Source of the DNA: Shigella phage ESh15
Sequence record: ON528725
DNA: 64,000 nt
Strand: one strand, 5' to 3'
Positions 17,647 through 64,000 of the stretch are shown here, piece by piece; position 1 is the first letter of the stretch, and every line of letters begins with the position of its first letter. Under the pieces are notes generated by a model that had not been told where the DNA came from, searched no databases, and saw only the letters and a list, made by a program, of their open reading frames with translations. The translations under genes and the position numbers were made by a program.

Positions 17647-18134
17647 GTTTTAATAATCTCAATGATTTCATCTCGGGACAATCCATTGATAAGAACGGTT
17701 TTCAAACCATCACACTGGATTTTGTACGATTCAAACAATACACACAACTCTTCTGCTGTATGATATGGACTTGAGATTCCGAGGCGGTTGAATTTGTCGG
17801 TAAGAGGGTCACAAATAATGTAGAATTTTATACCTGCGATATGTACGTTGGGTTGACTAATATTAATGAACACATTAGCATCATATTTAGTCAAATTGTT
17901 TTGAAGAAATTCTACCATAGCATTAACTGCTTCTGGCATCGCTTCGCGTTTCTCTTCAGCATATCGGGTTGAATATTCCTTTTGCTTTAACTTCTTTTTA
18001 GCATTTTTCGCTAGAGTAGTACGAAGGTCCGTAAGATAACCAACTGGACGGCCTTTCTTAAAGACCTGGATTCCATCTGTAGAATCACCAAATGCTGCCA
18101 CAACCATATCGTTAGTAATCAATTGCATATTCAT
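17634..18134 (-). CDS. Putative Alc-like protein (host transcription shut-off); start set at internal ATG (MNMQL)
   Basis: About 166 aa from the ATG with GGAGAAAA RBS (T4 Alc 167 aa); position between spanins and RNA ligase 1; no sequence comparison possible here. Confidence 0.45.
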   Translation of the reverse strand: MNMQLITNDMVVAAFGDSTDGIQVFKKGRPVGYLTDLRTTLAKNAKKKLKQKEYSTRYAEEKREAMPEAVNAMVEFLQNNLTKYDANVFINISQPNVHIAGIKFYIICDPLTDKFNRLGISSPYHTAEELCVLFESYKIQCDGLKTVLINGLSRDEIIEIIKTCLK

Positions 18135-62329: not shown

Positions 62330-62344
62330 TGTAGAAACAAAAAA

Positions 62345-62364
62345 AGGAATCCCGAAGGATTCCT
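62345..62364 (-). terminator. Intrinsic terminator after soc
   Basis: AGGAATCC-CGAA-GGATTCCT followed by UUUUUUUG in the minus-strand transcript. Confidence 0.65.
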
Positions 62365-62372
62365 TAAATTAT

Positions 62373-62640: not shown

Positions 62641-62648
62641 TATTTATA
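62641..62648 (-). promoter_or_regulatory. Late promoter TATAAATA for soc
   Basis: Plus strand reads TATTTATA (reverse complement TATAAATA) about 32 nt upstream of the soc start. Confidence 0.65.
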
Positions 62649-62654
62649 ACTTAA

Positions 62655-63176
62655 TTAGTAACCATTATCCTGACGTTCAAAGTTGTGTTGGTTTTTCAAG
62701 TAATACAGTTTAAAGATTTCTTCAGCCGAAAGACCTAGACCTTGGAACATATTCAGAACAAAGTGGAGGATATCAATCATCTCGAATTTAATTTCAAGCT
62801 GGTCTTCAGGAGACAGTTCATCGATACGTCGATTTCGATATTCAGCATGTTGTGCTTTCCAAGGCTTCCATACACTGCTGGCGGCTTTTTCACCATTGCT
62901 CATACCACCAAGTGAAGTCAGCAGTTCACGGAATTCATCATCAATATAATCTTTCTGATTACGCAGCCAATCAACAACATCACCAGCAGTAGCCAATTCA
63001 TCAGGATGTTTGTTATGTTCAGGCTTGTCATTTGCCAGACGAACCTGTAAAGATTTCTGCATATCAAGCATAACTTGCAGTGGGTCTTTATCTTCGTGAA
63101 TCAGAGCATTAAAATAAGCTTCTTCTGCTTTATCAACACCAGAAATAAGTTGTGAACATTCGTTAAAGTGTGCCAT
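62655..63176 (-). CDS. 56: dCTPase/dUTPase gp56 (MazG-like dCTP pyrophosphatase)
   Basis: 173 aa from internal ATG (MAHFNEC), T4 gp56 171 aa; long near-identical stretches (DKDPLQVMLDMQ, TAGDVV.W.R.QKD.IDDEFRELLTSLG, SPEDQLEIKFE, HFVLNMF.GLG, EEIFKLYYLKN). Confidence 0.88.
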   Translation of the reverse strand: MAHFNECSQLISGVDKAEEAYFNALIHEDKDPLQVMLDMQKSLQVRLANDKPEHNKHPDELATAGDVVDWLRNQKDYIDDEFRELLTSLGGMSNGEKAASSVWKPWKAQHAEYRNRRIDELSPEDQLEIKFEMIDILHFVLNMFQGLGLSAEEIFKLYYLKNQHNFERQDNGY

Positions 63177-63265
63177 TATTTTTCCTTTCAATTCAGTAAT
63201 AAGTGAGTTAATTCTAACATTAATTTTATAAAGCGTAATAAATAATAGGTAACTAAGGAGATATT

Positions 63266-63463
63266 ATGTTTAAACTTCCATCGTTAATCAACGCTATTAA
63301 AGGCAATAAAAAGAAAACTGCTATCGCTGCAATAGTTGTAGGCGGCATTATTTCATGGAACTTCGGGATTGCACCATTGTTAGTTGCCCATGGTGTTATA
63401 GTTCCTTCTGTTCCATTGGATACTGTAGTTGATTTGGCCTTTGCTATTATAGGGCTTGTTTAA
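63266..63463 (+). CDS. Small hydrophobic membrane peptide (65 aa) on the opposite strand to its neighbours
   Basis: Strong RBS AAGGAG 6 nt before ATG; basic N-terminus then about 45 hydrophobic residues with GG and G-x-x-x-A patterns. Confidence 0.4.
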   Translation: MFKLPSLINAIKGNKKKTAIAAIVVGGIISWNFGIAPLLVAHGVIVPSVPLDTVVDLAFAIIGLV

Positions 63464-63999
63464 ATCTTCGAATAACGAGATAATCTCATTTTAGCATGCA
63501 ACCCACTTGAAATATTCTGTTTCATATATTCTAAAATTTCTTGTGGTGTTGCATTTTCTTTCATTACCATATCATTCACATCCTTTGATCTCCACGGAGC
63601 TCGGTCCCAGAACATGACACGTTCGCCTGCATCAACTAATCGCTTCATGCGAGCTATAGTATCCGGATGCCTAGGTTCATTATCCATTACCCATACCCGA
63701 CGTTCTTTAAATGGTACCACATCTAAATCTATTGAGCCGCCTGTAATAGCGATTGCATTGGGTATGAATAAACTATCAATAGGGCCTTCCATTACCCAGA
63801 CGTCTCCTTCCTTAACACGTTCAACACCATAAATTTTTGTTGCAGACTCAAACGCTTTAATAGTGATATATTTTTGAGGAGCATCTTTGCGAAGTGCACG
63901 TCCTTGGAATGACTCGGCCTTCCCGTCTTTATTAAAAATAGGAATCACTAAACGTGGTTCGGGAATCTCTTTCTTATACGTACCAGGTTGAATCTTGTT
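63460..63999 (-). CDS. 61: DNA primase gp61, C-terminal part (5' end lies beyond the window end)
   Basis: Frame open to the window end (track start is GTG); TOPRIM-like motifs (VMEGPID, VMDNEP); position upstream of gene 56. Confidence 0.65.
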   Translation of the reverse strand, partial: NKIQPGTYKKEIPEPRLVIPIFNKDGKAESFQGRALRKDAPQKYITIKAFESATKIYGVERVKEGDVWVMEGPIDSLFIPNAIAITGGSIDLDVVPFKERRVWVMDNEPRHPDTIARMKRLVDAGERVMFWDRAPWRSKDVNDMVMKENATPQEILEYMKQNISSGLHAKMRLSRYSKI

Positions 64000-64000
64000 G

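Follow-up and report, generated by a model that had tools for sequence, protein, structure and literature searches.

[quoted passage not shown] This raises the question as to whether the ORF is a gene and, if so, what its product could do for the phage. In the window, by which we mean the whole stretch of 64,000 nucleotides that was analysed (record ON528725), its surroundings are as follows:

62655–63176, minus strand: gene 56 (dCTPase), the divergent upstream neighbour, named as annotated in relatives
63266–63463, plus strand: coding sequence of 65 aa, PHROG 2024 (RB69ORF029w family), from profile match, dN/dS and identity to YP_010093341.1
63460–63463, both strands: TTAA, shared by the overlapping stop codons of the ORF (plus) and gene 61 (minus), from sequence
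63460–64000, minus strand: 3' part of gene 61 (primase), the convergent neighbour, named as annotated in relatives

Our preferred reading, a real gene that is expressed late and whose inner-membrane product has a part in lysis, has a probability of roughly 0.35 when taken as a whole. The ORF starts with ATG and is intact, the range given including the stop codon. A preliminary description of this DNA had reported a 65-aa plus-strand ORF with an AAGGAG ribosome-binding site between the dCTPase and primase genes, inside a long run of minus-strand genes, and both observations hold: the ribosome-binding site lies 5 nt before the ATG, and the ORF is the sole plus-strand gene within more than 22 kb of minus-strand genes, with every non-shadow ORF of at least 120 aa between 41 and 64 kb on the minus strand. 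Judged by the window's ORF list, no other gene overlaps it apart from the TTAA that its stop shares with gene 61, and the family HMM found no paralogue elsewhere in the window. The further claim that the 56–61 interval is unusually compact compared with T4 was mistaken, because the small T4 genes are found beyond gene 61: in T4 and T2, 61.1, 61.2, sp, 61.4 and dmd are on that far side, and the interval itself contains dam (plus one ORF in T2) and the same plus-strand ORF.

The ORF is almost certainly a real protein-coding gene, judging by how its sequence has evolved. In the ORF frame, dN/dS is 0.10–0.31 for all pairs with unsaturated dS, which corresponds to purifying selection; values of 0.1–0.3 together with saturated synonymous sites mean that it is the amino-acid sequence that is conserved and not the nucleotide sequence. 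Absence or disruption of the ORF in close relatives had been proposed as a way of refuting it, and this check clearly favours a gene, the ORF being intact in 691 of the 858 phage records (coverage at least 80%). Frameshifted or truncated alleles do exist (P0093, P0112 and P0117, of which P0112 comes from a 175-kb NCBI contig), so that the gene may be dispensable. The gene belongs to the RB69ORF029w / PHROG 2024 family, which is conserved throughout the Tevenvirinae and is always on the opposite strand to gene 61 and convergent with it. The protein matches phrog_2024 over its full length (E 2.1e-27, residues 1–65 of 65), scores 97 bits with a family HMM built in this analysis, has the same sequence as hypothetical protein YP_010093341.1 from Shigella phage phi25-307, and carries the core motif W-N-x4-P-x5-G-x3-P-x3/4-[DE] as W31, N32, P37, G43, P47 and D52. 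In lying on the plus strand and pointing towards the 3' end of gene 61, it shows no difference from the other members (RB69ORF029w / RB32ORF030w). At least ten Tevenvirinae genera keep an uninterrupted copy of the ORF in the same place, convergent with gene 61 and in most cases with the two stops overlapping in TTAA; we have seen it in Mosigvirus, Tequatrovirus, Gaprivervirus, Jiaodavirus, Moonvirus and the Klebsiella phages Potts1 and Marfa, and further tblastn matches come from phages that we take to be Karamvirus, Kanagawavirus and Gelderlandvirus.

Members of PHROG 2024 (RB69ORF029w / RB32ORF030w) are labelled "hypothetical protein" everywhere, and the ORF and its product have no match in Pfam, NCBIfam, PADLOC or Rfam. 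A profile search of the PDB gave chance matches alone (E 0.1 or worse), Foldseek against BFVD returned family members only, and a profile search run exhaustively against 1.8 billion representatives produced only 21 clusters, all of small proteins of the same type. Literature searches with ORF names, peptide strings, T4 re-annotation and transcript maps found nothing on the 65-aa gene. The T4 copy lies on the plus strand at 17738–17938 of NC_000866 and is unannotated in the T4 RefSeq record; since it is absent from the reference proteome, its product has so far been undetectable by proteomics. T4 is the reference for this phage family and its annotation underpins transcriptomic, proteomic and CRISPRi screens, to all of which a gene missing from it is invisible. 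Adding the gene would be cheap and would provide an extra handle on late membrane events in T-even phages, such as lysis timing, membrane assembly and late protection. Otherwise the gene is a modest curiosity, one among many small phage membrane proteins, and no new kind of system.

The elements upstream of the ORF point to when it would be expressed:

63211–63235, minus strand: candidate middle promoter for gene 56, read by eye (MotA-box-like CGCTTTA, 12-nt spacer, TAGAAT)
63237–63244, plus strand: late-promoter-like box AATAAATA, of the T4 gp55 type TATAAATA with A at −13, from motif position and conservation
63255–63260, plus strand: Shine-Dalgarno sequence AAGGAG, 5 nt before the ATG, from sequence

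Motif and conservation together suggest that the gene is very probably transcribed late. The box AATAAATA lies 21 nt before the ATG, with a predicted transcript start at about 63250, and this matches the layout of a T4 late gene, in which a box of the TATAAATA type stands about 6 nt before the start and a −35 element is unneeded. Among natural variants of the late box, the one with A at −13 is the most frequent (PMC2988020, PMC1524935), being present in 9 of 50 T4 late promoters (PMC2988020), and RB69-type phages have either A or T at this position (PMC1524935). With the single exception of KM16, every T4-like locus and lineage has the heptamer ATAAATA 19–40 nt ahead of the ATG that starts its first plus-strand family gene. 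For this heptamer the chance expectation is about 0.006 per 30 nt, yet it is conserved in about 10 lineages, with the exact TATAAATA in three of them (L018, L019 and L020), and it is kept despite unrelated upstream neighbours (gene 56, dam, a homing endonuclease, small ORFs). Some relatives have tandem pairs of family genes, the second of which has no promoter of its own. Upstream of the ORF in the window, the late box stands alone, with no sigma-70-like promoter on the plus strand.

The candidate middle promoter of gene 56 is back to back with the late promoter of the ORF. The T4 MotA-box core is TGCTTtA, from which CGCTTTA departs by one mismatch. We considered whether ATAAATA is merely the flank of a minus-strand MotA box and rejected this, because T4, T2, Potts1, Marfa and L023 keep the heptamer without such a box; in Gaprivervirus the flank reading does hold, AAAGCATAAATA there being the complement of a perfect TGCTTTA.

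In relatives the position of the Shine-Dalgarno sequence is occupied by AGGAGG or GGAGG, and every lineage has a consensus version. The initiation region lacks structure (MFE −3.1 kcal/mol, with shuffled sequences doing equally well). We strongly infer that the gene has its own gp55-type promoter, with AATAAATA about 6 nt before the start of transcription, and that the consensus Shine-Dalgarno sequence would allow efficient translation from a 5' leader of about 16 nt.

For the product, charge, hydropathy, an AlphaFold2 (AF2) model and the family alignment divide the 65 residues into three parts:

63266–63316, plus strand: residues 1–17, basic N-terminal helix MFKLPSLINAIKGNKKK, net charge +5, predicted cytoplasmic (charge; AF2)
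63317–63388, plus strand: residues 18–41, single transmembrane (TM) helix with the invariant W31-N32 (63356–63361) and P37 (hydropathy; AF2; alignment)
63389–63460, plus strand: residues 42–65, predicted periplasmic, loop HGVIVPSVP and C-terminal helix LDTVVDLAFAIIGLV (hydropathy; AF2; alignment)

The model has a pLDDT of 81, with helices at residues 3–13, 15–41 (pLDDT 87–90) and 51–62, and the product can with good confidence be predicted to be a small inner-membrane protein. The basic N-terminus followed by hydrophobic residues, as described earlier, is borne out by the net charge of +5 and by a strongly hydrophobic stretch at 18–41 that gives way to a hydrophobic and acidic tail (charge −2) ending in LAFAIIGLV. 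TM prediction, which had been recommended as a check, yields one helix at residues 18–41. A second TM helix at residues 47–65 was ruled out because this segment is too polar (about +9 kcal/mol, summed by hand on the Hessa scale). W31, N32, P37 and G43 are invariant across the family, P47 and G63 are nearly so, and the acidic residue at position 52, in the short C-terminal helix, is conserved. Among distant members, conservation is highest in residues 42–65, and the remotest ones still retain the motif, at 17–30% identity and even in unrelated prophages where no primase gene adjoins. The basic N-terminal sequence is conserved within E. coli-phage clades only, and TM hydrophobicity is marginal in some clades. 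Small-residue packing motifs had also been pointed out, and G26xxxS30xxxG34 is indeed present, but it is specific to Mosigvirus, and what the family conserves is W31, N32, P37 and G43.

The protein would insert into the inner membrane as a bitopic protein with its N-terminus inside and C-terminus outside: a basic cytoplasmic helix, one TM helix with a Trp-Asn pair and a Pro kink, and about 24 residues at the periplasmic face that form a Gly/Pro loop and then a short acidic, hydrophobic helix. The conserved core would comprise the outer half of the TM helix and the periplasmic part, so that the protein probably acts by helix-helix association in the membrane. This association is probably driven by the buried Asn, with the protein itself, a paralogue or some partner at the periplasmic leaflet as its counterpart. 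The small membrane peptide of the preliminary description thus stands as far as coding-level conservation, the conserved late promoter and Shine-Dalgarno sequence and the predicted TM helix go, but its functional analogies with membrane toxins, immunity or superinfection-exclusion peptides and bacteriocin-like peptides find no support: there is no match to a toxin, defence or holin family, the early promoter that exclusion of the T4 Imm/Sp type needs is absent, and no leader or processing signature holds family-wide.

We infer that the product is most likely a late, oligomerising accessory factor at the inner membrane. Our guess is that it assists the late programme of membrane permeabilisation or lysis, perhaps as a holin-like factor or one that sets lysis timing, and that plaques can form without it; a lysis-related role is tentative, even as the leading guess. 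What speaks for such a late lysis or membrane role are the tandem paralogues and the surroundings of homologues in prophages. Enterobacterial prophages carry distant homologues within their late blocks of tail or lysis genes, and in three lineages (L026, L028 and L029) the homologue is in a late operon, 0–2 kb from a lysozyme of the T4 e type. Prophage homologues also adjoin a protein with a TM segment and a coiled coil that has weak similarity to Rz spanins, and in the complete prophage of E. coli PSS-15 only three small TM proteins, the family member among them, are candidates for the holin of the soluble lysozyme. Scans of genome collections with two prophage-type members as queries gave no matches.

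Among characterised proteins, single-TM holins (T4 holin T and T7 gp17.5) are among the closest comparisons. Like them, the product is small, with at least one TM domain, and by prediction located in the inner membrane and expressed late; its polar TM residues could drive oligomerisation, and its distant homologues lie near T4-type lysozyme genes. With holin T it also shares a predicted N-in/C-out topology and a charged cytoplasmic N-terminus, but the large periplasmic domain of T is absent. Canonical holins end in a charged cytoplasmic tail, whereas here the charged domain is N-terminal and a charged C-terminal tail is lacking. Searches of Pfam, NCBIfam, PHROG (including its lysis families), Foldseek, PADLOC and the PDB found no similarity, in sequence or profile, to a holin, antiholin, spanin or any other characterised family, and adjacency to an endolysin or spanin is confined to the distant prophage homologues, the T-even gene lying away from the endolysin; in the window it stands between genes 56 and 61, with no lysis gene nearby. 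Two relatives are labelled 'Holin' or 'putative holin', to which we gave no weight as the labels come with no stated evidence. The pinholin S21-68 of phage 21 and SAR-type proteins such as the T4 antiholin RI are alike in length (65–70 aa) and in that 11 of the 24 residues of the Mosigvirus TM helix are Gly, Ala or Ser, with a marginal predicted insertion energy. However, a pinholin has two TM domains, the first able to exit the membrane, whereas the ORF product has a single TM helix and no homology, and the weak hydrophobicity is unconserved, the TM helix of SP18 being strongly hydrophobic. Lysis and lysis inhibition of T4 are accounted for by t, e, rI, rIII and sp, and T4 lysis genetics does not require the 65-aa product. 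A near-saturating hunt for T4 r mutants by Burch and colleagues in 2011 reportedly found no gene beyond these five, so any lysis role must be subtle or host-dependent.

The same prophage neighbourhoods could be read differently, with the protein as a tail- or virion-associated membrane factor that either anchors or assists tail or baseplate assembly, or travels with the virion and enters the inner membrane of the recipient at DNA delivery. We consider this unlikely, and nevertheless the tightest linkage in prophages is to tail genes, which favours it: in four prophage-type lineages overlapping stop and start codons couple the homologue translationally to the gene of a 180-aa protein with a weak match to phrog_1924, 'minor tail protein', after which come a tail chaperone and a tape measure protein, and in E. 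coli PSS-15 the homologue lies between the gene for a tail-tip protein and those for a tail chaperone, a tail protein and the tape measure protein. A structural role, or one in assembly, agrees with the late expression predicted for T-even phages, and the T4 product could have escaped proteomics by its absence from the reference proteome. In a broader and rather far-fetched form, the protein would be an unrecognised component common to T-even phages and a group of temperate enterobacterial siphophages, made late with the tail proteins and serving tail biogenesis or, in the virion, the formation of a conduit for DNA across the recipient's inner membrane. To our knowledge, the crossing of the recipient inner membrane by T4 DNA is still without explanation; if such a shared component were real, it would have escaped detection because its gene is missing from the T4 reference proteome.

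Late protection of the inner membrane, in the form of superinfection exclusion, resistance to lysis from without, or counter-defence against a late-firing membrane-embedded abortive-infection or defence effector, also seems improbable; exclusion was among the ideas of the preliminary description. Such tasks often fall to small bitopic phage proteins of the inner membrane, examples being HK97 gp15 and T4 Imm, both small inner-membrane proteins of superinfection exclusion. Conservation of the ORF product is centred on the periplasmic leaflet, where incoming phages and host sensors act; the gene looks dispensable, duplicating and decaying between lineages in the manner of accessory host-interaction genes; and the far side of gene 61 carries spackle, dmd and an AdfA-family gene. 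The prophage homologues of the ORF lie among the tail genes, close to that for the tape measure protein, which is also where HK97 has its gene 15. However, exclusion must act within minutes of infection, and the sole promoter of the ORF is of the late type, without the early expression of Imm and Sp. In prophages the homologues are embedded in a late operon and are not morons with a promoter of their own, so that neither an early gene nor a prophage-expressed moron is at hand; sequence similarity to gp15 or Imm is absent, and PADLOC, with its profiles of known anti-phage defence and counter-defence, and other family searches gave no match.

Far less credible than a lysis accessory is a membrane toxin or bacteriocin-like secreted peptide, in which the N-terminal 43 residues would be a signal peptide cut after A-H-G to free a hydrophobic peptide of 22 aa. 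The window protein obeys the −3/−1 rule (A41, G43) and G43 is invariant, but position −3 is W, M or F in the distant members P0128, P0132 and P0122, and we ruled out cleavage after AHG because these violate the rule. Moreover, an h-region of about 24 and an n-region of about 17 residues are too long for a Sec signal peptide, and the most conserved residues (W31, N32 and P37) would fall inside the supposed signal. Genes for a leader, immunity and export are absent, as is any antisense-RNA or antitoxin arrangement of the kind seen with type I toxins.

Finally, the end of the gene bears on its transcript. The 4-nt overlap with the stop of gene 61, which is also found in T4, T2, KM16, Slopekvirus, Marfavirus and L023, leaves no space for a terminator between the convergent genes, and we found no plus-strand terminator downstream of the ORF in the window. 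Where an intergenic gap exists there are hairpin terminators 3' of the gene, as in KP1079 and L015, in which the gap holds a G+C-rich hairpin. A late transcript of the ORF must therefore run antisense into gene 61. That the interval is just promoter and terminator DNA, or a source of late RNA antisense to the transcripts of genes 61 and 56, with an incidental ORF, gains from this guaranteed antisense transcription, from the candidate minus-strand promoter of gene 56 and from the transcription of both strands at several T4 sites (PMC2988020), but is scarcely credible given dN/dS of 0.1–0.3 with saturated synonymous sites, a protein motif retained at 17–30% identity without a primase neighbour, a consensus Shine-Dalgarno sequence in every lineage and no Rfam match. 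With the ORF read as a late gene, the locus would neatly illustrate how a late transcription unit can run antisense into an early replication gene.

The 65-codon ORF between genes 56 and 61 is a real gene, and inspection of the sequence bore out the coordinates, strand, ribosome-binding site and composition given in the preliminary description. The window belongs to an RB69-like Mosigvirus, a T-even phage, and the 1.4 kb around the ORF are 98% identical to Escherichia phages 348Ecol098PP, APCEc01, HX01 and some 150 more. From 41 kb to the window end, all non-shadow ORFs of at least 120 aa are on the minus strand, making this the sole plus-strand gene in more than 22 kb. Its surroundings are as follows.

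62655..63176, minus strand: gene 56 (dCTPase), one neighbour of the ORF
63237-63244, plus strand: late-promoter-like box AATAAATA, 21 nt ahead of the ORF's ATG
63255-63260, plus strand: AAGGAG (Shine-Dalgarno), 5 nt ahead of the ATG
63266..63463, plus strand: the ORF, 65 codons with an ATG start (ORF calling)
63460.., minus strand: gene 61 (primase), the other neighbour
63460-63463, both strands: TTAA palindrome in which the stop codons of the ORF and gene 61 overlap

By tblastn the ORF is present in 858 phage records, and in 691 the match spans 80% or more of its length. Nei-Gojobori dN/dS in the ORF frame is 0.10-0.15 for Mosigvirus, 0.12-0.30 for Tequatrovirus, 0.29 for Gaprivervirus and 0.26-0.31 between genera, distant pairs having saturated or nearly saturated synonymous sites. 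No overlapping ORF of any size was found (the opposite-strand maximum is 31 aa), so that the constraint falls on the ORF's protein. The translation initiation region is unstructured (MFE -3.1 kcal/mol; 169 of 200 shuffles fold equally well or better). Frameshifted or truncated alleles occur in a few of the 117 clusters of family proteins (P0093, P0117 and P0112, the last from a 175-kb NCBI contig), so propagation may not require the gene. Hundreds of genomes already list the family as an anonymous ORF, and it is not a new kind of element. Shigella phage phi25-307 has the identical protein (YP_010093341.1), and PHROG 2024 ('unknown function') matches the product over its full length (E 2e-27). 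Most relatives annotate the homologue as 'hypothetical protein', the T2 record remarks 'similar to RB69ORF029w; RB32030w', and database names for the family are all 'hypothetical' or 'uncharacterized' except for a UniRef entry named 'Holin' and a 'putative holin' in GenBank, both labels stating no evidence. Pfam, NCBIfam, PADLOC, PDB sequences and Rfam gave zero matches to the ORF or its protein, Foldseek against viral models returned family members only, and a full-text literature search by ORF names and peptide strings found no paper on the gene.

A plus-strand homologue lies directly 3' of gene 61 in many lineages:

L001, plus strand: Mosigvirus
L002 and L003, plus strand: T2 and T4
Plus strand: Gaprivervirus SP18 and P479
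Plus strand: Jiaodavirus KP1079
Plus strand: Moonvirus KM16
Plus strand: Klebsiella phages Potts1 and Marfa
Plus strand: several uncultured T4-like contigs

Tblastn also found homologues in, for example, Enterobacter CIP9, Edwardsiella PEi20 and Salmonella S16, which we take to be Karamvirus, Kanagawavirus and Gelderlandvirus. The 4-nt stop-codon overlap with gene 61 is the same in most lineages; KP1079 and comparison locus L015 have a short gap with a G+C-rich hairpin inside. The T4 reference (NC_000866) has no annotated feature in the 309-bp interval from dam (end 17625) to gene 61 (start 17935). An intact 66-aa homologue, 55.6% identical over aligned residues, is nevertheless encoded at 17738..17938 on the plus strand (L003 3239-3439), with GATAAATA and AGGAGG upstream, and its exact sequence has no NCBI accession in a collection of 15 billion proteins. 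The idea that several small genes separate 56 and 61 in T4 was mistaken: 61.1, 61.2, sp, 61.4 and dmd sit between 61 and 41, and the 56-61 interval contains dam and this plus-strand ORF. A Tevenvirinae-wide, predicted late membrane-protein gene is thus missing from the T4 reference annotation, which is worth recording.

Late promoters of T4 consist of the octamer TATAAATA at positions -13 to -6, perfect in 32 of 50 T4 late sites and with A at -13 in nine (PMC2988020); RB69 and other relatives have either A or T at -13 (PMC1524935). The box at 63237-63244 predicts that transcription starts near 63250, which would put the Shine-Dalgarno sequence inside a leader of about 16 nt. Across the T4-like loci fetched, an ATAAATA heptamer stands 19-40 nt (mostly 23-29) ahead of the start codon of the first family gene on the plus strand, where chance would give 0.006 per 30-nt window; the sole deviation is KM16, carrying ATTAAATA, and three loci (L018, L019 and L020) have the exact octamer. 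The heptamer is kept despite varying upstream neighbours (gene 56, dam, a homing endonuclease, small ORFs) and otherwise unalignable flanks, and the second gene of each tandem pair has no late box of its own. In the whole window VATAAATA variants are rarer than chance (9 sites vs. 19.1 expected; 99 of 100 shuffles had at least 9), consistent with selection against stray late promoters. No sigma-70-like promoter facing the ORF was found. From these promoter signals we conclude that the ORF is a predicted late transcription unit. The overlapping stops leave a terminator no space and no plus-strand terminator was found downstream, so a late RNA must run on antisense into gene 61; a conserved late promoter belonging to this gene and reading into the primase gene also deserves recording. 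By eye, CGCTTTA, a 12-nt spacer and TAGAAT (63235-63211, minus strand) look like a MotA-type middle promoter that would be a candidate for driving gene 56 and that stands back to back with the late box. Judged against the familiar MotA-box consensus, the Gaprivervirus heptamer abuts the complement of a perfect box, TGCTTTA (AAAGCA joined to TAAATA). Conservation of the heptamer as a MotA-box flank was rejected, since T4, T2, Potts1, Marfa and locus L023 keep it without such a box. Elsewhere, a perfect late promoter TATAAATA (62641-62648, minus strand) stands just upstream of soc, and a hairpin just downstream of soc (62344-62365; 9-bp stem, T-runs flanking on both strands) fits a putative bidirectional terminator.

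The structural description as a small membrane protein holds, hydropathy predicting a single membrane-spanning stretch at residues 18-41. It follows a basic segment (net +5) and precedes 24 residues of net charge -2, a distribution that, by the positive-inside rule, predicts an N-in/C-out topology. AlphaFold2 (27-sequence family alignment; mean pLDDT 81) gives three helices (3-13, 15-41 and 51-62), with residues 42-50 forming a loop. The segment 47-65, which contains two Asp and two Pro, is too polar for a second TM helix, and signal-peptide cleavage after A-H-G is unlikely given a hydrophobic region of about 24 residues with conserved residues within it, and W/M/F at -3 in distant members. 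M1, W31, N32, P37 and G43 are invariant over paralogue types A and B, P47 and G63 nearly so, and the most distant members (21 clusters at 50% identity, from an exhaustive profile search of 1.8 billion proteins) keep [WY]-[ND]-x4-P-x5/6-G-x3-[PA]-x3/4-[DE], which places the conserved core in the outer half of the TM helix and the first part of the periplasmic tail. Between clades, the cytoplasmic N-terminus differs. The packing motif noted earlier is present as G26xxxS30xxxG34 but is confined to Mosigvirus. An Asn buried in a lone TM helix is well known to drive association between helices, and on this basis the product likely acts by self-association or partner association in the membrane.

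Some lineages carry tandem pairs of plus-strand family genes. Type A, to which the window ORF belongs, has the pattern MxKL..AIKGNKK..WNF..AHG..P.V.LD, and type B MGTxFYQIWKL..D..WNL..ATQG... The order is A then B in P479 and B then A in three Mosigvirus-like contigs; Potts1 and Marfa have B alone, and SP18 retains only fragments of its B copy. A family HMM run over the 64-kb window found no second copy, only type A.

L005 2207-2407; L015 and L017 2305-2508; L018 2285-2491; L004 2199-2310: type B tandem paralogue, Gaprivervirus and some Mosigvirus-like contigs

Five distant members could be placed in genome context. P0122 is again on a T4-like contig, beside the primase gene, and P0130 is on an uninformative 513-bp contig. 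P0125/P0126, P0131, P0123 and an unannotated ORF in GenBank PQ671644 (DCP80) belong to another kind of phage, of which a 34-kb E. coli PSS-15 prophage between ybiT and ldtB is a complete example.

L032 20723-20935 (NZ_AP027709 3377046-3377258): PSS-15 family member, 70 aa

The PSS-15 order is major tail protein, DUF6950, lambda-J-like tail-tip protein, a 98-aa TM plus coiled-coil protein (whose homologues show weak Rz-spanin similarity), endonuclease VII, the family member, a 179-aa protein (weak match to phrog_1924, 'minor tail protein'), a 107-aa protein, tail chaperone, tail protein and tape measure protein. At the opposite prophage end, just past the recombinase, there is a T4 e-type lysozyme, and only three small TM proteins, the family member among them, could serve this soluble lysozyme as holin. 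Other prophage-type lineages keep the trio of family member, 180-aa and about-106-aa proteins, and in them the stop codon of the member overlaps the 180-aa gene's start; in L026 and L029 the next gene is a T4-type lysozyme, which in L028 is 1.5 kb off.

Taken together, the evidence points strongly to a late, well-translated bitopic inner-membrane protein with a conserved face at the periplasmic leaflet. Its functional role is a guess. Our leading but tentative reading, at a probability of roughly 0.3, is an accessory role in late membrane permeabilisation or lysis. It draws on the late timing, the polar TM helix, the paralogue pairs and the lysozyme and spanin-like genes that neighbour distant relatives; in addition, small late membrane proteins of phages that have been characterised are mostly lysis proteins. 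However, a charged C-terminal tail and lysis-protein homology are absent, and T4 genetics speak against it: lysis and lysis inhibition are accounted for by t, e, rI, rIII and sp, and the near-saturating r-mutant hunt of Burch et al. in 2011, a study cited in PMC6832632, reportedly found no further gene. The tight coupling to tail genes in prophages would suit a tail- or virion-associated membrane factor, which we regard as somewhat less probable. On a par with it is a late protection or counter-defence factor, given that the gene looks accessory, is predicted to act at the periplasmic face and adjoins a region rich in protection/counter-defence-type genes, although the promoter timing is wrong for the superinfection exclusion raised initially. 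The toxin or bacteriocin-like peptide also proposed there is very improbable, and an incidental ORF within a regulatory or antisense region, contradicted by dN/dS and the prophage homologues, is the least probable of all.

The homologues in L032, L022, L025, L026 and L028 are in temperate siphophage-type Enterobacterales prophages. A T4 e-like lysozyme, endonuclease VII and a SegE-like gene are found in these prophages as well, a gene content that suggests exchange with T-even phages. CTAAATA precedes the prophage-type homologue in L026/L027 (L026 5960-5990); Aeromonas phage Aeh1 has this sequence as its late-promoter consensus (PMC1524935), and the match is probably a coincidence. The record of 'Escherichia phage DCP80' (141 kb, classed Gaprivervirus; L029 is PQ671644 17620-30129) holds a block typical of the prophage group, with lambda-J-like tail-tip protein, endonuclease VII, small membrane protein and lysozyme, and may be a chimeric assembly.

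L029 5792-5965: unannotated 57-aa family member in DCP80
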